This document shows positions 1 to 46,182 of a stretch of DNA of 64,000 bases, piece by piece (position 1 is the stretch's first letter; the number at the start of each line of letters is the position of its first letter). Source of the DNA: an uncultured Candidatus Saccharibacteria bacterium (GTDB lineage Bacteria > Patescibacteriota > Minisyncoccia > Phycocordibacterales > Phycocordibacteraceae). The stretch is taken from contig CAYOCH010000001.1 of the NCBI GenBank assembly GCA_964402535.1, forward strand, positions 8,286 through 72,285, in the 5' to 3' direction. Made by a program: the position numbers and the translations under genes. The notes beneath the pieces were generated by a model. That model made no database searches. It was given only the letters and a program-made list of their open reading frames with translations, and was not told where the DNA came from.

Positions 1-738
1 GAGGAGCATGTGATACAGCGAGACTGCGATAAGCCGCGGGATCACGATGTCGAGCACCTCAGCGGGCGACGGCTCGACGACATATGAGGCTGGCGCAGCG
101 AGCACGGCCTCGTGGCTCCACTTGCCCTTCGCAGGGATGATGCCCTCGACGATGTCGCGCACGGCCCCGACCGAAAGCGGCAGGAGCCGGCGCACGGTCG
201 GCGTCTGCTCGAACGTCGACTTGAAGTTGCTGTAGACGGTGACGACCTTGTCGTAATCTCCGCCAGTGAAGCCGGCGGCGAGCTCGCGCGTGAGCTCGTC
301 CATCGATGAGAGCGGCACGTCGTCGCCCTTGTTCTCATAAGCCTTCGCAATGCGATAGCCGCGGCGGTTGAAGTATTCCTCTCCCTTCTTGCCGAAGGCG
401 TAAACGACCACCTCCTCCCTCTTGCGGCCCTCGAGCGCCTCGACAGCGCGCTTCAACACGCCGCTGTTCAAGGCGCCCGCGAGCCCCTTGTCGCTCGTGA
501 TCACGACGAGCGCGAGCGCGCGGCCCTCGCGGTGCACCGCGAGCGGGTGGTTGCGCACGTGCTCGGTGCCGGCGAGGCGCGTGAGGACAGAGAGCGCCGC
601 GCGCGCATACGGGCGGCCGGCGAGCGCGGATTGCTGCGTCTTGCGCATCTTCACCGCTGAGACGGCCTCCATCGCCGCCGTCACCTTGTGGGTGCGGTGC
701 GTCGCGCCGATCTTCGCCTTGATATCCTTGAGCGCCAT
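1..738 (-). CDS. atpG: F0F1 ATP synthase gamma subunit (N-terminal part; gene continues past window start)
   Basis: Reverse strand from 738 translates MALKDIKAKIGATHRTHKVTAAMEAVSAVKMRK..., typical AtpG N-terminus; last gene of the atpBEFHAG order; no stop before window edge. Confidence 0.85.
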   Translation of the reverse strand, partial: MALKDIKAKIGATHRTHKVTAAMEAVSAVKMRKTQQSALAGRPYARAALSVLTRLAGTEHVRNHPLAVHREGRALALVVITSDKGLAGALNSGVLKRAVEALEGRKREEVVVYAFGKKGEEYFNRRGYRIAKAYENKGDDVPLSSMDELTRELAAGFTGGDYDKVVTVYSNFKSTFEQTPTVRRLLPLSVGAVRDIVEGIIPAKGKWSHEAVLAAPASYVVEPSPAEVLDIVIPRLIAVSLYHMLL

Positions 739-762
739 ACCGAAGTTAGGACATCCGATGTC

Positions 763-2337
<1,575 letters not shown>

Positions 2338-4530: not shown

Positions 4531-4550
4531 GGCTACTGCCCCTCTTAAGC

Positions 4551-4578
4551 AAAACCCGCCTCACGGCGGGTTTTGCTT
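4551..4578. terminator. Bidirectional intrinsic terminator (AAAACCCGCC-TCAC-GGCGGGTTTT)
   Basis: Perfect 10-bp stem carrying A4/T4 on both sides, between convergent SWIB gene and mscL. Confidence 0.7.
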
Positions 4579-4978: not shown

Positions 4979-5052
4979 TGGTCGGGCCGCCGGGAATTGA
5001 ACCCGGTCTACACGCACCCGAAGCGTGCGTACTACCGGCATACTCCGGCCCG
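4979..5052 (-). tRNA. tRNA-Pro(CGG), CCA encoded
   Basis: Cloverleaf: acceptor CGGGCCG/CGGCCCG, anticodon loop UUCGGGU, T-loop TTCAATT. Confidence 0.75.
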
Positions 5053-5053
5053 G

Positions 5054-5127
5054 TGCGCTCTGCAGGGATCGAACCTGCGACCTTACGCGTGTGAAGCGTA
5101 CGCTCTAACCAACTGAGCTAAGAGCGC
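5054..5127 (-). tRNA. tRNA-Val(CAC)
   Basis: Acceptor GCGCTCT/AGAGCGC, D-arm GCTCAGTTGGTTAGAGC, anticodon loop TTCACAC, T-loop TTCGATC. Confidence 0.8.
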
Positions 5128-5156
5128 GCTCCTGCACGATAACAGATTTATCTTTG

Positions 5157-5227
5157 TCGGGCTACCGGGAATTGAACCCGGTCTACATCCACCCCATGGA
5201 TGCGTACTACCGGTATACTATAGCCCG
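5157..5227 (-). tRNA. tRNA-Pro(GGG)
   Basis: Acceptor CGGGCTA/TAGCCCG, anticodon stem CATCC/GGATG with loop ATGGGGT. Confidence 0.7.
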
Positions 5228-5272
5228 CGACGAGGTTGAGAATAACACATGTCGTGATAAAATCGCTCGCAC

Positions 5273-5345
5273 GGGCCATTAGCTCAGTTGGTAGAGCGCG
5301 TCATTCGCATTGACGAGGTCAGGAGTTCGACTCTCCTATGGTCCA
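5273..5345 (+). tRNA. tRNA-Ala(CGC)
   Basis: GGGCCAT..ATGGTCC acceptor with G3:U70, anticodon loop TTCGCAT. Confidence 0.8.
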
Positions 5346-5378
5346 CAAAGGGTTTGGTATACTTATCCATCATGAAAA

Positions 5379-5677
5379 TGCCTGGAGAAGGGATCCGACA
5401 GTATCTGAATCAGCAGGAGTCAAATGAAGGCGCCGAGGCGCGTTTAAAGACCGAAATATCAGAGTATGTTGCCGGCATTGACGCGAACGCCACAGTCGAA
5501 TTCGAGACGTACAAGTGGTCTCGCGAGGCCGAGGAGGGCGATGGGCTCAAGATGACCTTCAAGTACAACGGCCGCGAAGAGGTGTACCGCGACCAGGAGC
5601 TGAACGATGCGTCGTTTGATGCCGCAAAGGATGTGTTCGACCGGTTCTATCGCGCCGCCAAGAACTCCATCGCGTAG
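5379..5677 (+). CDS. Hypothetical small acidic protein
   Basis: About 100 aa ORF between two tRNA-Ala genes; start trimmed to downstream ATG outside the tRNA; no recognisable domain. Confidence 0.4.
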
Positions 5678-5714
5678 CGATTTCGGAAAAAATACGGTAC
5701 AAATAGCGAGTAAG

Positions 5715-5785
5715 GGGCCTATAGTTCAGCGGTAGAACGCGTCCATGGCATGGACGAGGTCGGGGTCCGACTCCCCGTAGGTCCA
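5715..5785 (+). tRNA. tRNA-Ala(GGC)
   Basis: Acceptor GGGCCTA/TAGGTCC with G3:U70, anticodon loop ATGGCAT. Confidence 0.75.
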
Positions 5786-6718
5786 CTAAATTCCCAGATT
5801 CCCAAGGGCGTTCCTCACCTCAGCGATCGGGAGGGCGAAGCCGATATTCTGCGCGCCCTGCACCATCGCCACGTTCACGCCGACCGCCTCGCCCGAGAGG
5901 TCGACCAAGGGGCCACCCGAGTTCCCTGGGTTGATCGAGGCGTCGGTCTGGATCACGTTCTTCAAGGTCTCGGTGCCGCCGCTATCGTTTGCGGCGGTAA
6001 TCGTGCGGTTTAAGCCCGAGATCACGCCCACAGACACCGAATTATTGTATTCGCCGAGCGCGTTGCCGATCGCAAAGACAGACTGTGCGAGCTGGAGCGA
6101 AGAGGAGCTGCCGAGCGGGATCGTCGGGTAGCCGCTCCCTGCGACCTTCACCACCGCCAAGTCCTCTGTCGGCGAACGCCACACGACCGTGCCGTCCTTC
6201 TGCTTGCCGTTTGAGAGCAGCACCGTGTAGGTCGCGTTCGCGTCCGGCACGACGTGCTTGTTGGTGACGGTATAGCCGCTCGAGCGGACGAAGAATCCTG
6301 TCCCGGCCGAGACCTGCTGCGTCGTCGTGCCCACCTGCTGATAGACCGGCACCTGTACGCCGAAGTCTTGGAAGAACGGGTCGTTGCCGAACGGGTTCTC
6401 ATAGGTCACCTGCAATTTAGGCACGACCTGGCTCTCGACGATCGAGACGACCGCAGGCGACGCGGCTGCGACCGCGTCCTGCAACGTCTGCGTCTGCGAC
6501 TTCTGCGCCACCTGCTGCCGGCGCGTCAGCTCCGAGAGGTTGGCGTTCGTGCTCGCGGCCGTCGAGCTCGCCGAGGTGGCGACCTGTAATATCTCACCCT
6601 GAAGTGCATTGATCGTGCGCGACAGCTTCGCGATCTGGCTGTTCTCGTAGACGAGCCCGCCCACGACGATAATCATCGCCAGGAGCCCCACGAGCCAGAG
6701 CGTGTCTATCTTCTTCAT
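5786..6718 (-). CDS. Trypsin-like serine protease, HtrA/DegP family (no PDZ domain evident)
   Basis: Catalytic His (TNKHVV), Asp (TEDLAVVKV), Ser (GNSGGPL); N-terminal TM anchor; start trimmed to MKKIDTLW. Confidence 0.8.
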   Translation of the reverse strand: MKKIDTLWLVGLLAMIIVVGGLVYENSQIAKLSRTINALQGEILQVATSASSTAASTNANLSELTRRQQVAQKSQTQTLQDAVAAASPAVVSIVESQVVPKLQVTYENPFGNDPFFQDFGVQVPVYQQVGTTTQQVSAGTGFFVRSSGYTVTNKHVVPDANATYTVLLSNGKQKDGTVVWRSPTEDLAVVKVAGSGYPTIPLGSSSSLQLAQSVFAIGNALGEYNNSVSVGVISGLNRTITAANDSGGTETLKNVIQTDASINPGNSGGPLVDLSGEAVGVNVAMVQGAQNIGFALPIAEVRNALGNLGI

Positions 6719-7113: not shown

Positions 7114-7131
7114 GCATTCTGCTATAACCGG

Positions 7132-7204
7132 TGGACCATAGCGGATTCGAACCGCTGACCCCCTCATTGCAAATGAGGTGCTCTACCAACTGAGCTAATG
7201 GCCC
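7132..7204 (-). tRNA. tRNA-Ala(TGC)
   Basis: GGGCCAT acceptor with G3:U70, anticodon loop TTTGCAA, T-loop TTCGAAT. Confidence 0.8.
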
Positions 7205-8459: not shown

Positions 8460-9707
8460 TTATATCAGGCTGCGAGAGCGCGCTGCGCGGTGCTTCGCAA
8501 GAGAAAACCGGTGCGCCTCGGCGTTCGCAAGCACCGCATCTGCCTCGCTGATACCCGCCGCGCGGGCACCGATCACTTCGCGCGGTCGGTGCCGCTCGTC
8601 TTTGACGAGCGCAACCACCGGTATCTTCACGCCAGCGTCCGCGAGAGCTGCCTCTGCTGCCTTCTTTTGTGTCTTACCGCCGTCGACGACGATCGCCTGA
8701 GGGAACGGCCACTCCGGATGATTGAAGCGCCGTGACAGGATCTCTTTCAGCGATCCGACATCGTCGTTCTTCTTGATGCCACGGATACGGAACGTGCGGT
8801 ACTCGCTCTTCACCGGAGCGCCATCTGACACGACCGTCATCACGCCGATCGCATTCGTCCCCGCCAAGTGCGCCGTATCATAGGCTTCTATCCTGTATCC
8901 AAATCTGTCCGCGGTCGCGTACATATTTGGATGCAGGTTTTCGTCCTTGATGAGCGAGACGTCCTGGATATGATCGAGCGCGAAGAGCTCTCGGCGCGCC
9001 TCTGCCGCGTCCTCGAACCGCTCATCCTTGGCCGCCTCGCGCATCTCGCGCGTTAGCGCGACGCGCAGCTCCTTGCCGCGACCGCTCAAAAACAGCTTCA
9101 CCTTGAGGATCGTGCGGCGATAATGCTTTGCATCAATCTCTCGCGGGTACTGGCCAATCTGCGTATTAAACTCGATTTTGGCGCGGTGATGCTTGCTCGT
9201 GTGGCCGACCGGCTTCGGGGTATCGAAAAACGGGAAGATGCGGCGGATGAGCCGCAGCCCCTCGCGCAGCTGCGCGCCCGAAGGGAACGGTCCGTAGATC
9301 GACTCAAACCGGCTCCCGGCGGCGATCTTCTTTACAAAATCTATGTCCTTGCCGCGCACGGCGAGCACGCGCGCGATCGGCTCCTTGGTGATGATCGCGT
9401 AGAGAAAGCTTTTATCATCCTTGCCCTCGACGTTGGCCTTGGGCTTGTACTTCTTGATGAGCGCGGCCTCGCGCACCAAGGCCTCGAGCACGGTCGGGCA
9501 CGTCTCGTGCGCGACGCGGTCAGCGCGCGTCACCATGTCGACTATGCGCGGCCCGCGTGTCGCGATCAGGTCGTCGTCGAAATAGCTCCGCACGCGGTCG
9601 CGCAGGCTCGTCGCCTTGCCGACATAGAGCACCGCCCTCCCCTTCTTAAAGAGGTACACGCCCGGCACGTCCGGGAGGTCAGACTGTTTTAGGTCGCTTC
9701 TTTGCAT
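8460..9707 (-). CDS. uvrC: Excinuclease ABC subunit C, short form (GIY-YIG plus UvrBC-interaction plus endonuclease domain; C-terminal (HhH)2 apparently absent)
   Basis: N-terminal GIY-YIG (VPGVYLFKKGRAVLYVGKA), UVR motif, C-terminal EAYDTAHLAGT...IVVDGGK block homologous to the UvrC nuclease domain; only 415 aa. Confidence 0.8.
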   Translation of the reverse strand: MQRSDLKQSDLPDVPGVYLFKKGRAVLYVGKATSLRDRVRSYFDDDLIATRGPRIVDMVTRADRVAHETCPTVLEALVREAALIKKYKPKANVEGKDDKSFLYAIITKEPIARVLAVRGKDIDFVKKIAAGSRFESIYGPFPSGAQLREGLRLIRRIFPFFDTPKPVGHTSKHHRAKIEFNTQIGQYPREIDAKHYRRTILKVKLFLSGRGKELRVALTREMREAAKDERFEDAAEARRELFALDHIQDVSLIKDENLHPNMYATADRFGYRIEAYDTAHLAGTNAIGVMTVVSDGAPVKSEYRTFRIRGIKKNDDVGSLKEILSRRFNHPEWPFPQAIVVDGGKTQKKAAEAALADAGVKIPVVALVKDERHRPREVIGARAAGISEADAVLANAEAHRFSLAKHRAARSRSLI

Positions 9708-15592: not shown

Positions 15593-16843
15593 TTAGGCGT
15601 AGTAGGAACGGACAAAGTCTGCCCGATATTGTTCAAATCGTCCATCGATGATCGCCTGCCGCGCGCCAGCGACGAGGTCGAGGATGAAGCCGACGTTGTG
15701 CATCGAGGCGATAGCTGCGCCGAGCATCTCGCCCGAGCGCAGGAGGTGCGCGACATAGGCGCGAGAGAACTGCTCGGTGCCTGTTACAGCGAGCTCTGGG
15801 TCGAGCGGGCCGAAGTCTGTCCTATATTTTTCGTTCGTGAGACGGATGACGCCTTGTTTCGTATAGATCGAGCCGTGCCGGCCGAGCCGCGTCGCTGCGA
15901 CGCAGTCGAAGAGGTCCATGCCGTTCGCGATGCCCTCGAGGATATCGCCCGGCTCACCGATCCCGAGGAAGTGCCGCGGCAGCTCCTCGGGCAGTTCCCC
16001 CACGGCTGCCGAGAGCGCGCTCCGCATATCCTCCTTGCTGAAGGAGCCGCCGATGCCGATGCCGTCGAAGCCGAGTGAGGCGATCTCGCGAGCCGACTCG
16101 GCGCGCAGATCTTCGTGACGGCCGCCCTGCACGATGCCGAAGATCGCCTGCTTCTTGCTCGCGTCGATATTCTGCCGGTGCGCCGTAAGCGACCGCGCCG
16201 CCCAGCGATGTGTGCGTTCCATCGCCTCCTTCTGGTATTCATACGGCTCAGTCGGCGACGTGCATTCGTCGAAGGCGAAGAAGATGTCCGCGCCGAGTGC
16301 GTGCTGGATCTCGATCGTGCGCTCTGGCGTGAAGCGATGCAGCGAGCCGTCCAGGTGCGAGGTGAAGGAGACGCCCTCGTCGTCGATCACCGCGAGCTGG
16401 CCGTGCTGGCTCGCGACGCTCTCGTCGAAGTGCGCGAGCCCATGTCGGGACGTCGTACGTCCTACATCAGATGTAGGACGTACGACGTCCTCCACATTCG
16501 AGATCTTCGAGATCTTACGGCCGAAGGCCGCCCCGAGCGAGAAGACCTGAAAGCCGCCCGAGTCAGTGATCGTCGGCCCGCTCCAACCCATGAACGTGCC
16601 GAGCCCGCCAGCCTCTTGGACGATCTTCTCTCCCGGCTGCAGGTAGAGGTGATAGGTGTTCGCGAGGACGACCTCGGCGCCGAGCGCCTCGAGGGTCGAG
16701 GGCAGGATGCCTTTCACGTTCGCCTTCGTTCCCACCGGCGTGAAGGCGGGCGTGCGGATCGCCCCGTGAGGCGTCGTGAGGATGCCAACACGCGCGCGGC
16801 TCTTCAGCTCGCGTGATTCAATTGAGAATGAGATCGCGCTCAT
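15593..16843 (-). CDS. tgt: Queuine tRNA-ribosyltransferase (tRNA-guanine transglycosylase) with about 43-aa insertion
   Basis: TDSGGFQVFSLG, FDECT and Zn-site CxCxxC-like blocks conserved; 416 aa versus about 375 typical; extra segment after FSLG contains a perfect palindrome. Confidence 0.85.
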   Translation of the reverse strand: MSAISFSIESRELKSRARVGILTTPHGAIRTPAFTPVGTKANVKGILPSTLEALGAEVVLANTYHLYLQPGEKIVQEAGGLGTFMGWSGPTITDSGGFQVFSLGAAFGRKISKISNVEDVVRPTSDVGRTTSRHGLAHFDESVASQHGQLAVIDDEGVSFTSHLDGSLHRFTPERTIEIQHALGADIFFAFDECTSPTEPYEYQKEAMERTHRWAARSLTAHRQNIDASKKQAIFGIVQGGRHEDLRAESAREIASLGFDGIGIGGSFSKEDMRSALSAAVGELPEELPRHFLGIGEPGDILEGIANGMDLFDCVAATRLGRHGSIYTKQGVIRLTNEKYRTDFGPLDPELAVTGTEQFSRAYVAHLLRSGEMLGAAIASMHNVGFILDLVAGARQAIIDGRFEQYRADFVRSYYA

Positions 16844-31400: not shown

Positions 31401-31423
31401 TGAGCAAGGACAGTCCTTGCTCA
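31401..31423. terminator. Hairpin TGAGCAAGGA-CAG-TCCTTGCTCA between convergent genes
   Basis: Perfect 10-bp stem; T-run on the upstream side (TAGTATTTT). Confidence 0.5.
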
Positions 31424-34630: not shown

Positions 34631-35641
34631 TTATGCGTGACCAGACGCTGTCACCACCTGCTCGAGCTCGGCGGCGGAATTGGCGGCCATGAGCTTGGCG
34701 CGGAGGTCGGCGGCGCCGTCAAAGCCGGTGACGAATGCCTTGATGTGCTTCTTGAGTATCGAAAAGTTCTTCGGCGGCGCGAGCTTCTCAAATCCGTGCG
34801 CGAGTTCGACGAGCGCCATCAGCTTCTCTTGCAGTCCATGTTCGGGTTTCGTAAATCCATCATGCATGATGGATTTACGAAACCCATCATTGCCGCGCTC
34901 CGCAAATACCCACGGATTGCCAAACATGCCGCGGCCGATCATGACGCCGTCACAACCGGTCTCTGCGGCGAGCCGCTCCCCTTCTGCGATGCTCTGCACA
35001 TCGCCATTCCCTATGAGGAGCACATCGGGCGCGATCCGGTCGCGGAGCTCTTTAGCCTTCTTCATCCGCTCCCAATCGGCGGGGACGAGCGAGAGCTCCT
35101 TGCGCGTGCGCAGGTGGAGCGTGAGCGCCGCCGGTCGTGCCGAGAGGATCGGCGTGAGCCACTCTAGAAGCGTCTCTTTGTTATAGCCGATGCGCGTCTT
35201 CACCGAGACCGGCAGCCCTGCAGACTTCGCCGCCTCGATGAGTTCGACCGCTAAGGTCGGCGACTTGATGAGCGCTGCGCCGGCACCCTGCTTCTCGATG
35301 CTCCTATCCGGGCAGCCCATGTTGAGGTCGACGCCGTCGAAGCCAAGCTCGGCCACGACCTTGGCGCCATACGCGATCATCTCGGGTTTCGCCGAGAAGA
35401 TCTGTGCGACGATCGGATGCTCAGCGCTCGTGAACCGCAGATCGCGCATAAGCGGATTCTCTGCGTCCGGCATCTTAGCGATCTCGCGGGTGTGAAGGAG
35501 CCCGTCGGCCGAGACGAACTCGGTCCACGTGACGTCCGGCTTGCCATGCTTCGCAACGAGCGCGCGGAAGGCAGCGTCGGTGACATCCGCCATCGGCGCC
35601 ATCGCGAAGAACGGTCGCGAGAGCTTATTCCAGAATGACAT
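34631..35641 (-). CDS. dus: tRNA-dihydrouridine synthase
   Basis: TIM-barrel Dus motifs (APMADVTD, NMGCP, VKTRIG, conserved catalytic Cys); 336 aa. Confidence 0.85.
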   Translation of the reverse strand: MSFWNKLSRPFFAMAPMADVTDAAFRALVAKHGKPDVTWTEFVSADGLLHTREIAKMPDAENPLMRDLRFTSAEHPIVAQIFSAKPEMIAYGAKVVAELGFDGVDLNMGCPDRSIEKQGAGAALIKSPTLAVELIEAAKSAGLPVSVKTRIGYNKETLLEWLTPILSARPAALTLHLRTRKELSLVPADWERMKKAKELRDRIAPDVLLIGNGDVQSIAEGERLAAETGCDGVMIGRGMFGNPWVFAERGNDGFRKSIMHDGFTKPEHGLQEKLMALVELAHGFEKLAPPKNFSILKKHIKAFVTGFDGAADLRAKLMAANSAAELEQVVTASGHA

Positions 35642-39452: not shown

Positions 39453-41864
39453 GTGCGCGTTATGAGTGAGGGGGTGAGCTCCAAACTACTCATCGTCGAA
39501 TCACCGACCAAGGCGCGCACGATCGGTCACTACCTGGGCAAGGACTACACGGTCCTCGCTTCAGTCGGCCACGTGCGCGATTTGCCCAAGACGAACAAGG
39601 ACGCCGTCGACATCGAGGGCGGCTTCGTGCCGCGCTACGTGATCCCCGCCGAGAAGCGTGAGGTGATCGAGAAGATCGAGCGCGCCGCCAAGAAGGCCGA
39701 CGAGATCTATCTCGCGACCGACCCCGACCGCGAGGGCGAGGCGATCGCGTGGCATATCAAGGAGGTCGCCGGACTGAAGCAGCCTAAGCGCGTCGCCTTT
39801 CACGAGATCACGAAGGAGGCGATCGAGGAGGCGCTCAAGGAGCCGCGCGCGATCGACGAGCACCTGCGCCAGGCGCAGGAAGCCCGCCGCGTGCTCGACC
39901 GCATCGTGGGCTACGACCTCTCCGGCCTCATCTGGAAGAAGGTGCGCTACGGCCTCTCTGCCGGACGCGTGCAGTCACCTGCGCTCCGGATCCTCGCGGA
40001 GCGCGAACGCGAGATCACTTCGTTCATCCCGGTCACGTACTTCGTGCTCTCTGCGCTCTTCACCTCGAAGAAGGGTGAGATCGCCACGACCTGCACCGAG
40101 CAGCCCGCGACGCGCGAGGAGGCCGAGCGGATCGTGCGCGAGGGCAAGAGCGCGTCGTGGCAGGTCGCCGACGTGAGCGAGAAGGCCGAGGAGCGCAACC
40201 CGCGTCCACCCTTCACCACCTCGACGCTGCAGCAGGCAGCCTCGACGCGGCTCGGCTTCGCACCTTCGCGCACGATGCGCGCCGCGCAGAAGCTCTACGA
40301 GGCGGGTCACATCACCTACATGCGTACCGACTCGGTGAACCTCGCGAAGGAGGCGGTCGCCAAGCTCGCCGGCGTCGTCGAGAAACAATTCGGCAAGGAG
40401 TACCTGCAGGTGCGCGCCTACAAGACGACGAGCAAGAACGCCCAGGAGGCGCACGAGGCGATCCGCCCCACCGACCCTTCAAACACGCACGCAGGCGCGA
40501 CGCCTGACGAGACGCATCTCTATGAGCTTATCCGCACGCGCACGCTCGCCTCGCAGATGGCGGCCGCCAAAGTGATGCGCACGTCGATTTCAATACAAGC
40601 AGATAAAATGATTCCGCTCTTCGTCGCGAACGGCTCGCGGGTCATCTTCCCGGGCTGGCTCGCGCTTGACGTGAAGGCGCGCGGCGAGGACGTCGAGCTG
40701 CCGCACGTCGCGAAGGGCGATGCCGTGTCGCTCCTCTCGCTTACCAGTGAAGAGAAGCAGACCGAGCCGCCGAACCGCTACACCGAGGCCGGCCTCATCA
40801 AGGAGCTCGAGAAGCGCGGCATCGGCCGCCCCTCGACCTACGCCTCGATCATGAAGACGATCCAGGATCGCGGCTATGTAGAGAAACTCGGCAGGGCGCT
40901 TAAGCCGACCGCGACCGGCATGGTCGTCTCCGGCTGGCTCGAGGAGCACTTCCCCGAGTATGTGAGCGACACGTTCACCGCCGAGATGGAGGATGAGCTC
41001 GACGAGATCGCCCGCGGAGAGCGCGGCTACACCGAGACGCTCTCGGCCTTTTATGGACCGTTCGAAAAGGCGGTGCACGCCAAGGACAAGCTGCCCAAAG
41101 CGACCTCGCTCGGCAACGTAGACGCCAAGTTCCCCTGCCCGATCTGCGGCGGCCCGATGGAGTTGAAGCTCGGCCGCGGCGGCGTCTTCATGTCCTGCAA
41201 GCGCTACCCGGACTGCGTCGGCGCCCGCACCGAGGACGGCGCTGAGCTCAAAGGTGACGAGCCGATCGGCAGCCACCCCGAGACCGGCGCACCTATATAT
41301 GTGAGGAGCGGCCGCTACGGGCCGTATGTCGAGATGCCCGAGCCCGAACCAAGGTCAGACCTTAAGAATTCGGATCCAAGGTCTGACCTTAGTTCGGGTA
41401 CGAAGAAACGCGGTAAAGGGCGACCGAAGGTCGCTGCCAAGCGCGCGAGCATCCCTGCCGGCACTAAGCCCGAGGACGTGACGCTCGCCGACGCCGTGCG
41501 CTACCTCTCGCTCCCGCGCGAGCTCGGGACGCATCCCTCGACCGGCAAGCCGGTCATCGCCTCCACCGGCCGATTCGGCCCCTACGTCGGGAGCAACGGC
41601 GAGTTCCGCTCACTGAAGAAGCAGGACCCCTACACCGTGACGCTCGACGAGGCGCTCGCGCTCCTTGCGCAGCCCAAGCGGCCGCCCAAGGGCGTCGAGA
41701 TCGTGCGCGAGATCGGCGCGCACCCAAAGTCTGGAAAGCAGCTCGTCCTCTACAAGTCGAAGCAAGGTCTCTTCCTCAAGAAGGGCTTGCGCCGCATCTA
41801 CCTGCCTTCGAATACGAGCGCCGACGCGCTCACGCCCGCAGAAGCGGCCACGTATCTCGCATAA
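39453..41864 (+). CDS. topA: DNA topoisomerase I
   Basis: TOPRIM (LLIVESPTKARTI), catalytic Tyr region, C-terminal Zn-ribbon (CPICGGPMELK...CKRYPDC) and basic tail. Confidence 0.95.
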   Translation: MRVMSEGVSSKLLIVESPTKARTIGHYLGKDYTVLASVGHVRDLPKTNKDAVDIEGGFVPRYVIPAEKREVIEKIERAAKKADEIYLATDPDREGEAIAWHIKEVAGLKQPKRVAFHEITKEAIEEALKEPRAIDEHLRQAQEARRVLDRIVGYDLSGLIWKKVRYGLSAGRVQSPALRILAEREREITSFIPVTYFVLSALFTSKKGEIATTCTEQPATREEAERIVREGKSASWQVADVSEKAEERNPRPPFTTSTLQQAASTRLGFAPSRTMRAAQKLYEAGHITYMRTDSVNLAKEAVAKLAGVVEKQFGKEYLQVRAYKTTSKNAQEAHEAIRPTDPSNTHAGATPDETHLYELIRTRTLASQMAAAKVMRTSISIQADKMIPLFVANGSRVIFPGWLALDVKARGEDVELPHVAKGDAVSLLSLTSEEKQTEPPNRYTEAGLIKELEKRGIGRPSTYASIMKTIQDRGYVEKLGRALKPTATGMVVSGWLEEHFPEYVSDTFTAEMEDELDEIARGERGYTETLSAFYGPFEKAVHAKDKLPKATSLGNVDAKFPCPICGGPMELKLGRGGVFMSCKRYPDCVGARTEDGAELKGDEPIGSHPETGAPIYVRSGRYGPYVEMPEPEPRSDLKNSDPRSDLSSGTKKRGKGRPKVAAKRASIPAGTKPEDVTLADAVRYLSLPRELGTHPSTGKPVIASTGRFGPYVGSNGEFRSLKKQDPYTVTLDEALALLAQPKRPPKGVEIVREIGAHPKSGKQLVLYKSKQGLFLKKGLRRIYLPSNTSADALTPAEAATYLA

Positions 41865-45288: not shown

Positions 45289-46182
45289 ATGACAATACAA
45301 TTACTCGCCATCGCCGGCCCGACCGCCTCGGGCAAATCCTCTCGCGCCGTCGAAGAGGCGCTCACGCGCAACGGCGAGATCATCTCGGTCGACTCGCGTC
45401 AGGTCTACCGCGGGCTCGACATCGGCACCGAGAAGGTTACGGCATCTGAGATGCGCGGTGTGCCGCACCACCTGCTGGATATACGCGAGCCGGAGGAGAC
45501 ATATTCCGCTGGCGAGTTCGTCGCGGATGCGACAACGGCCATTAACGATATCGTCGCTCGCGGCAAGCTGCCGATCCTTGTGGGCGGCTCGCACTTCTAC
45601 TTCGACGCGCTCCTTCAGGGGCTGCCCGACAGCGCCGACCCTGACCCGACGCTCCGCGCAGAGCTCGAGCGGCTCTCTGACGAGGAACTCTGTGCTCGCG
45701 TGCGCGCTGCCGATCCGCGTCGCGCTGCCGAGCTCGACCCCAAGAACCGCCGCCGCTTGATCCGTGCACTCGAGATCATCACCGCCCGCGGCTCCGTCCC
45801 GGAGCGGCGTTCGTTATCTTGTACGACCGTTGAAGATAACGAACACCGGCGACCATTTCAAGCCGAGTGGATCGAGATAAATCCGGATCGGGATGAGCTG
45901 CGGGCGCGGATCGACGCTCGGCTCAAGAGCGCGTTCGAGCGCGGCCTGATCGATGAGGTGCGGCGGGTCCGCGAACGTGTGGGCGACGCGCGGATCAACG
46001 AGCTCGGGCTCGAGTATCGCGTCGTGGGAGAGTTCTTGCGCGACGAGCGCAGTGAGGCATCACTCCTCCCTGCTCTCTCCGCCAAGCTCTGGCAATATGC
46101 CCGCCGGCAGAAGGCCTGGCTGCGCAAGCTCCGCGACGAGAACGTTATTGCGGGAGCGCCGTCGCACCCGGACAGAAGCTGA
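45289..46182 (+). CDS. miaA: tRNA dimethylallyltransferase
   Basis: P-loop IAGPTASGKS, DSRQVYRGLDIGT, and typical MiaA remainder. Confidence 0.85.
   Translation: MTIQLLAIAGPTASGKSSRAVEEALTRNGEIISVDSRQVYRGLDIGTEKVTASEMRGVPHHLLDIREPEETYSAGEFVADATTAINDIVARGKLPILVGGSHFYFDALLQGLPDSADPDPTLRAELERLSDEELCARVRAADPRRAAELDPKNRRRLIRALEIITARGSVPERRSLSCTTVEDNEHRRPFQAEWIEINPDRDELRARIDARLKSAFERGLIDEVRRVRERVGDARINELGLEYRVVGEFLRDERSEASLLPALSAKLWQYARRQKAWLRKLRDENVIAGAPSHPDRS

Follow-up and report, generated by a model that had tools for sequence, protein, structure and literature searches.

The hairpin at the atpA-atpG junction is most probably a REP doublet (REPIN-like) of a REP-RAYT type of system in Patescibacteria, which now supplies the end of atpA, and it is best read as such a REP/REPIN-like element rather than as a dedicated regulator of the atp genes. 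Its sequence is identical to that of a dispersed repeat, this repeat habitually forms inverted doublets, copies of it bracket a Y1 transposase gene, and the corresponding junctions of most relatives are without it. Due to the NTAG foot, the many genic copies, and the absence of a RAYT gene from the window (the whole 64-kb stretch of DNA that was analyzed), the element was placed with the REP-RAYT kind and not treated as a proven member.

On the plus strand, positions 747 to 765 read TAGGACATCCGATGTCCTA, i.e., TAGGACATC-C-GATGTCCTA, and positions 774 to 788 read GGACATCGGATGTCC, i.e., GGACATC-G-GATGTCC. A preliminary description of this DNA had reported two palindromes with mutually complementary cores, and the 15-mers GGACATCCGATGTCC (749 to 763) and GGACATCGGATGTCC (774 to 788) are indeed exact reverse complements. 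When up to 2 mismatches were allowed, the 15-mer core had 2 matches in the 64-kb window (0.15 expected), which were these two sites only. Folding of the minus-strand RNA of positions 720 to 810, which had been suggested as a check, gave a minimum free energy of -43.2 kcal/mol and a stem of 16 pairs (15 Watson-Crick pairs and one G-U pair) with a loop of 10 nt instead of the 9 nt described before. None of 200 shuffles folded as stably (mean, -25.8 kcal/mol; z = -5.17). The stem spans the final atpA codons and the TAG stop codon, and it ends 10 nt upstream of the atpG ATG; the gene assignments and the geometry, including the position of the stop codon inside the first palindrome, had thus been described correctly. 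The last 10 codons of atpA (795 to 766) and the stop codon (765 to 763) all fall within the element, and the 5' arm of the stem is formed by the codons T-S-D-V-Q of this C-terminal tail, which most relatives are without.

The stop-proximal unit is an exact match to the 19-mer core known from at least 120 metagenome loci. The second unit, read in frame as V-G-T-S-D-V-Q of atpA, has 3 mismatches to the 19-mer, and the same modified unit occurs in the related locus L019. The linker differs by one substitution from that of L019, and a related TGCGCA-containing linker is present in the doublet of L165. Two inverted REPs separated by a short spacer (10 nt) form one long hairpin with fully complementary arms, as in a REPIN, and the perfect 15- to 16-bp helix is a by-product, because the two units are inverted copies of one repeat. 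Chance or an assembly artifact was rejected as an explanation, since the same sequence is present in many independent assemblies. At the gathering threshold, Rfam matched only tRNAs in the window. The absence of an SD motif before atpG is not special: an SD-like motif precedes only 5 of the 41 long open reading frames (ORFs) of the window, so its absence is uninformative and was rejected as a sign of special regulation. At 7 to 12 nt before many ORF starts (e.g., 22866, 34398, 37759, and 22892), there is a TATACT/TATAAT-like box, pointing to mRNAs that are leaderless or have very short leaders. The coordinates of the features are listed in Table 1.

Table 1. Features of the atpA-atpG junction (positions within the window)
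Feature	Position	Strand	Description
atpG (F1 gamma subunit), 5' part	1..738	-	ATG at 738-736; protein starts MALKDIKAKIG
Whole doublet with outer flanks, 53 nt	743..795	-	AATG...ACTT on the mRNA strand; regarded as an inserted REPIN-like element, judging from the AAnn-core-nnTT flank consensus and the absence of the segment from most relatives
REP unit 1 (stop-proximal)	747..765	-	TAGGACATCGGATGTCCTA on the mRNA strand, beginning with the atpA stop codon; 3' arm of the long hairpin
atpA (F1 alpha subunit, 524 aa)	763..2337	-	Walker A motif GDRGTGKT
10-nt linker (loop) between the cores	764..773	-	AAAUGCGCUA on the mRNA
REP unit 2 (degenerate feet)	772..791	-	TAGgGACATCCGATGTCCAA on the mRNA strand; core 788-774; 5' arm of the long hairpin

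An AtpA scan of species-representative genomes yielded 80 Patescibacteria/Paceibacteria metagenome-assembled genomes (66 to 87% identity; several of them named Kaiserbacteria), and the atpA stop and the atpG start were located in all 80. Nearly all of these AtpA proteins matched residues 1 to 513/515 only and ended at about residue 513 to 519; therefore, the last 10 codons of the window atpA represent an extension. The typical gap between the two genes was 2 to 20 nt and contained no stem longer than 8 bp, and at least 74 of the 80 relatives were without a stem of 9 bp or more, which does not support the role implied earlier, that of an atp-specific hairpin that sets subunit stoichiometry. Alignment of the related junctions, also proposed earlier, revealed the pair in only two of the relatives, L019 (contig JAHFML010000002.1) and L012, and a single unit in L008. 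In L019, both stems are identical to those of the window, the loop carries one substitution, and the AtpA tail reads GGTSDVQMH*. L012 has two 19- to 21-bp units 25 nt apart with swapped center bases, while the slightly degenerate unit of L008 supplies the atpA stop. The stop-proximal unit appears orthologous in the alignment of the window, L019, L012, and L008. A neighbor-joining tree of AtpA, which as a single-gene tree is weak, grouped the window with L008, beside L007 and L019, and L012 with L018.

Some relatives carry an extra gene between atpA and atpG, with a gap of ~530 to 550 nt in L033, L043, L044, L060, and L068 and of 1.0 to 1.4 kb in L042 and L065. The intervening ORF of L044 and L033 (~180 aa) looks like an NTP pyrophosphatase.

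These junctions bear on the question of whether the hairpin was selected as a dedicated intercistronic RNA element that sets the alpha:gamma (3:1) ratio, either by blocking independent atpG initiation, by stalling atpA termination, or by protecting the upstream mRNA. We consider this unlikely; its best-supported version is the exaptation of an inserted REP. A very stable stem 10 nt from the atpG ATG would fit such a role, as would the persistence of the stop-proximal unit in four related genomes and the fact that L005, L017, and L030 carry other, unrelated palindromes between atpA and atpG. Furthermore, ribosome stalling has been reported for E. coli REPs that lie no more than 15 nt from a stop codon (Liang, Rudd and Deutscher 2015, as cited in PMC12306157). 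Between the window and L019, none of the 30 stem positions differs, and a single change is found in the about 44 nt of the doublet, although the two sequences share only 75.6% identity over 4.5 kb. However, no compensatory change was observed, so this conservation cannot tell structural from sequence constraint, and the sequence could be what is conserved. A hairpin that is conserved at the junction and displays covariation among relatives, as expected of an atp-operon regulatory element, was not found in these genomes. In addition, nucleotide-level conservation was equally observed for copies in other, unrelated genes, e.g., at the tgt site shared by L101, L133, and L150.

The distribution of the repeat also argues against a dedicated atp hairpin. 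The repeat has the core GGACATC-S-GATGTCC, usually in the form TAGGACATCSGATGTCCTA with AAnn/nnTT feet (the unit is also written GGACATCSGATGTCC), and sister families exist. A metagenome scan with TAGGACATCSGATGTCCTA returned at least 120 stretches with at least 143 exact copies, so that the same sequence is found at 140 or more other places, some of them inside ORFs. The preliminary description had suggested a genome-wide search for the sequence and had named a multicopy REP-like repeat without bias to this junction as the result that would speak against it. Such a repeat is what we found: the loci are unrelated, and none of the 120 metagenome loci listed is an atpA-atpG junction, i.e., the repeat showed no preference for atp junctions among these loci. 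Viral contigs gave 0 matches to TAGGACATCSGATGTCCTA, and a phage origin thus received no support. Elsewhere, a doublet of the core lies inside the atpG ORF of L018 (in-frame reading, VRTSDVHRNGGHPMST), the variant GGACACGgCGTGTCC lies inside atpG of L015, and L071 has an intergenic core copy between A- and T-runs. Some contigs (L085, L195, and L207) have 3 to 4 copies within 15 kb or less; in the 64 kb of the window, a single doublet of the exact family is present.

The contexts of 140 nonredundant copies among the matches listed were classified by a simple ORF criterion. Thirty-five copies (25%) were inside ORFs of at least 150 aa, always in one of two open frames, (V)RTSDVL or (N)VGH(P/R)MSY. 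A further 18 (13%) supplied the stop codon of an ORF of at least 100 aa, as in atpA, and 87 (about 62%) were intergenic or unclassified. The third frame of the repeat starts with TAG, which accounts for the termination of atpA by the element and for the recurrence of "TSDV" in genes such as atpA and tgt. The same protein site can be read in different frames, as seen in L114 (position 167) and L125 (position 9003), where ARTSDVL and VGHRMSY, respectively, precede LDLCAGSG. A common tgt site carries the repeat in L101 (9365), L133 (1364), and L150 (2580), at the position of the zinc-binding loop in tgt homologs. REPs have been defined as palindromic stem-loop units of about 14 to 40 nt with a common consensus, present in multiple copies per genome and extragenic (PMC12306157). 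The unit described here is a perfect palindrome of 19 nt, or of 27 to 29 nt with its feet, and it has a common consensus (at least 143 exact 19-mer copies, with AAnn/nnTT flanks). Its location departs from this definition, according to which REPs seldom overlap with coding sequence, as about 38% of the copies lie in or abut ORFs and the element of the window gives atpA 10 codons and a stop.

In most of the 140 copies, flank positions 3 and 4 outside the 19-mer are A to the left and T to the right. Flank pairs 1 and 2 are variable, with 3 to 4 pair types, yet they are Watson-Crick pairs in 128 and 122 of the 140 copies, respectively; G-T combinations are almost absent, and complementarity reaches background only around position 9. 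Therefore, the unit is a palindrome of about 27 to 29 bp under a hairpin or symmetry constraint. Units carry a further symmetric extension that is locus specific. At L081 to L200 (e.g., L081 at 1010, L109 at 1709, and L130 at 1291) and at L204/L207, the unique flanks are Watson-Crick symmetric for up to 8 to 15 bp, and where copies of one genome differ, the changes compensate each other (CCCAAAGT..ACTTTGGG versus CCCCAAGT..ACTTGGGG). Symmetric, compensated unique flanks of this kind are not explained by a fixed cut-and-paste element. The base before the TAG foot was C in 40%, T in 38%, and G in 20% of the 140 copies, giving an NTAG foot. TAG itself belongs to the conserved core and was included in the search pattern; relatives that were found without the search pattern have TAG, TCG, GTG, or TTG feet. 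Twenty-seven nonredundant doublets had their units within 60 nt, and the center bases were complementary, i.e., the units were inverted, in 21 of them (one-sided binomial P of about 0.003, an approximate value because some doublets are homologous).

Perfect 19-bp palindromes with a sequence strongly conserved across genomes, commonly arranged as short-spaced pairs, could also be imagined as operators, and the two palindromes at the junction, with centers 25 bp apart, would then be a site pair for a dimeric DNA-binding regulator. This is very improbable: a quarter of the copies are in frame inside ORFs and many are at gene 3' ends, the variable flanks stay Watson-Crick complementary although a duplex operator does not need this, copies bracket a transposase gene in inverted orientation, and no regulator gene recurs beside the copies. 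A role of the hairpin within the atp operon as an intrinsic transcription terminator or attenuator can practically be dismissed despite its strength and the many copies elsewhere with A-/T-run flanks resembling bidirectional terminators (e.g., L071, L093, and L109), since no T-run follows the stem, a terminator scan called no terminator at the atpA-atpG junction, and atpG, 10 nt downstream, needs read-through.

The REP/REPIN-like reading is further based on a transposase gene. At nine loci, two copies of the repeat 687 to 727 bp apart surround an ORF of ~215 aa (MEIYHVLNRG...HAFCLMPNHYHLL...YIHLNP), and this ORF is present in 18 of the 120 listed F1 repeat loci. It matched Pfam Y1_Tnp (PF01797) with 39 bits (gathering cutoff, 23), and its sole NCBIfam match was REP_Tyr_transpos (NF047646; E value, 9e-12), with 45 bits below the curated cutoff of 80. 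Its HxH motif (HYH) and the region of the tyrosine (YIHLN) hardly vary, in keeping with a Y1/HUH fold. The closest structure to the AlphaFold model (pLDDT, 91) was 4er8, the E. coli RAYT-REP complex (E value, 1.3e-4 over 180 columns), followed by a small margin by the TnpA proteins of ISDra2 and IS608 (about 130 columns); when the transposase was compared to the PDB by sequence, only ISDra2 matched, and marginally. The family comprises at least 3,295 members at an E value of 1e-10 or lower, which are named "transposase [Patescibacteria group bacterium]" or are Ca. Kaiserbacteria proteins. No homolog was detected by tblastn and profile search in the 64-kb window or in the atp loci.

As an independent test, contigs were fetched via three homologous proteins (two named Ca. 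Kaiserbacteria) without use of the repeat. All three genes were flanked on both sides by palindromes of the repeat family with opposite center bases: CCCAAAGTCGGACATC[c/g]GATGTCCGACTTTGGG for P0039, AAAGTTGGACATC[g/c]GATGTCCAACTTT for P0054, with a third copy nearby, and TTTAGGACACG[c/g]CGTGTCCTAAA for P0099. Flanking REPs in inverted orientation, which characterize RAYT genes, are thus found at the nine loci identified by the repeat and the three identified by the protein, with opposite center bases at 9 of the 12. P0039 and P0054 are 77% identical and have a common neighborhood (gap, rpiB, rpe, and transketolase), which points to vertical inheritance rather than insertion sequence behavior.

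We propose that an ancestor shared with L019 and L008 at the least, and probably also with L012, already carried one unit at its atpA 3' end. The second unit would have been added beside the first in inverted orientation, so that atpA now takes its last 10 codons and its stop from the pair. By analogy with TnpA(REP) of E. coli, the transposase could bind the repeat as a single-stranded DNA hairpin and cut and join adjacent to it, spreading and maintaining the copies. In the mRNA, the 5' arm lies in the last atpA codons, so the stem has to be opened by any ribosome that completes atpA; if it folded again, it would be 10 nt away from the atpG ATG. Ribosomes finishing atpA would in this way expose the region just upstream of the atpG start, which may otherwise be occluded, and the hairpin may couple or damp atpG translation. 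Since REPs near stop codons are reported to hold up ribosomes in E. coli, it is plausible that the hairpin influences atpG translation or the alpha:gamma ratio, and perhaps also the termination of atpA. That the unit has persisted in four related genomes would agree with co-option, and the low divergence of the doublet (compared to about 24% in the surrounding sequence) could also reflect a host function at this place.

A wider reading joins these observations, and we put it forward tentatively, rating it as possible but somewhat short of even odds. Patescibacteria would possess a REP-RAYT system of their own, whose symmetric palindromes colonize housekeeping genes in frame (as RTSDVL or VGH(P/R)MSY modules), donate stop codons, including that of atpA, and stay identical at orthologous sites while the genes diverge. 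The symmetry of the flanks would arise by a mechanism not known for REPs, and the atpA-atpG doublet would possibly have been co-opted to tune translation of the gamma subunit. Candidates for the origin of flank symmetry are insertion into hairpin centers, inverted target duplication, and palindrome growth by template switching.

Other palindromes are present in the window. The likeness of the core to a palindrome in tgt, which the preliminary description had pointed out, is real and proved a good lead: positions 16448 to 16490 form a perfect 21+1+21 palindrome in frame (codons 118 to 132; EDVVRPTSDVGRTTS), built of two inverted GGACGTnnnACGTCC units around TACATCaGATGTA. It falls in a ~45-aa insertion relative to the TGT of Z. 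mobilis, and three units of its type are found next to a RAYT-bearing Kaiserbacteria locus (L204/L205). In topA (41343 to 41398), two inverted AAGGTCnGACCTT palindromes are contained in 21-nt complementary arms, in frame (PEPRSDLKNSDPRSDLSSG), a design of paired self-palindromes shared with atpA. A perfect 21+21 palindrome without spacer is in frame in the dus (tRNA-dihydrouridine synthase) ORF (34844 to 34885; GFRKSIMHDGFTKP) and begins exactly at the end of the alignment to solved Dus TIM barrels; L147 has an F1 repeat in another loop of a Dus homolog. Imperfect palindromes with 21- to 22-nt arms lie inside long ORFs at 8892 to 8937 and 45805 to 45848, and a perfect intergenic palindrome (TGAGCAAGGACaGTCCTTGCTCA) is located at 31401 to 31423. 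Upstream of the atp genes, positions 4547 to 4578 form a palindrome resembling a bidirectional terminator (AAGCAAAACCCGCCtcacGGCGGGTTTTGCTT), with near-identical palindromes in L009 (3638), L015 (3750), L022 (2234), and L024 (3753). Six tRNA genes (Pro, Val, Pro, Ala, Ala, and Ala) of the 13 in the window are clustered at 4979 to 5786 and 7130 to 7204, just upstream of the atp region.

Annotation of the hairpin as a conserved regulatory element of the atp operon is not advisable, and the C-terminal tail of the window atpA is repeat derived; little changes otherwise. More generally, Patescibacteria, which are ultra-small, genome streamlined, and host dependent, appear to keep a REP-RAYT-like system with units in or beside essential genes. 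This is relevant to annotation, with regard to spurious C-terminal extensions, insertions, and stop codons, and to the assembly and alignment of metagenome-assembled genomes. The system also bears on the question of whether REPIN-RAYT systems are domesticated or beneficial, and the flanks, being symmetric and specific to each locus, provide a starting point for studying how such palindromes arise.

The kind of system is known, while the family, its perfect symmetry, the in-frame genic copies, and the symmetric unique flanks appear to be undescribed. Literature searches with the sequence, and with REP, RAYT, or REPIN combined with CPR names, returned nothing relevant, and Patescibacteria are not mentioned in the RAYT/REP surveys PMC5581495 and PMC12306157. 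Like the intercistronic hairpins of atp and other operons and the REPs near stop codons, the element is a stable hairpin that starts at a stop codon between cistrons of unequal stoichiometry; unlike the atp hairpins, it is not conserved at the atpA-atpG junction among relatives. Rickettsia palindromic elements (RPEs) are about 100 to 150 bp long, and we know of no transposase associated with them. According to Ogata et al. 2000, they are reportedly inserted in frame in protein-coding genes. The palindromes described here are likewise tolerated in frame in housekeeping genes, where they add short peptides (RTSDVL, VGH(P/R)MSY, and the 10 residues of atpA), but their units are only 19 to 29 bp long and are linked to a RAYT-like gene (RPEs receive mention in PMC1779305). 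With IS200/IS605 and palindrome-associated MITEs, the system shares the transposase fold and, by analogy, probably the recognition of hairpins as single-stranded DNA. It differs from IS200/IS605 in that the same palindrome is found on both sides instead of distinct left and right ends, tnpB is absent, the gene has a conserved chromosomal position, and solitary repeats far outnumber those linked to the gene.

The REPIN-RAYT systems of Pseudomonas (PMC3116915, PMC3337134, and PMC5581495) are closer. Inverted REP doublets form a long hairpin in both cases, copies persist at orthologous sites, and the transposase, to judge from the gap-RAYT synteny, may likewise be single copy and vertically inherited. 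In contrast to Pseudomonas REPINs, the doublets here are much shorter (about 40 to 85 nt), each half is itself palindromic, and many units are singlets. In the REP/BIME-RAYT system of E. coli, RAYT-type REPs have a conserved GTAG tetranucleotide 5' of the hairpin foot, and TnpA(REP) depends on the foot tetranucleotide both to bind and to cleave (PMC3479197). Compared to E. coli REPs, which are imperfect hairpins with GTAG, the units here are perfect, self-symmetric palindromes of 19 to 29 bp with an NTAG foot, and about 25% of the copies are in frame inside ORFs; the putative transposase, at ~215 aa, is about 12% identical to 4er8, stays below the NCBIfam cutoff, and has Patescibacteria as hosts. 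The likeness to the E. coli system (PMC3479197; 4er8) extends to the short palindrome, probably with an (N)TAG foot 5' of the hairpin, to inverted pairing, to copies at gene ends, some of them at stop codons, and to a Y1/HUH gene that is bracketed by the units and whose model has 4er8 as its best structural match.
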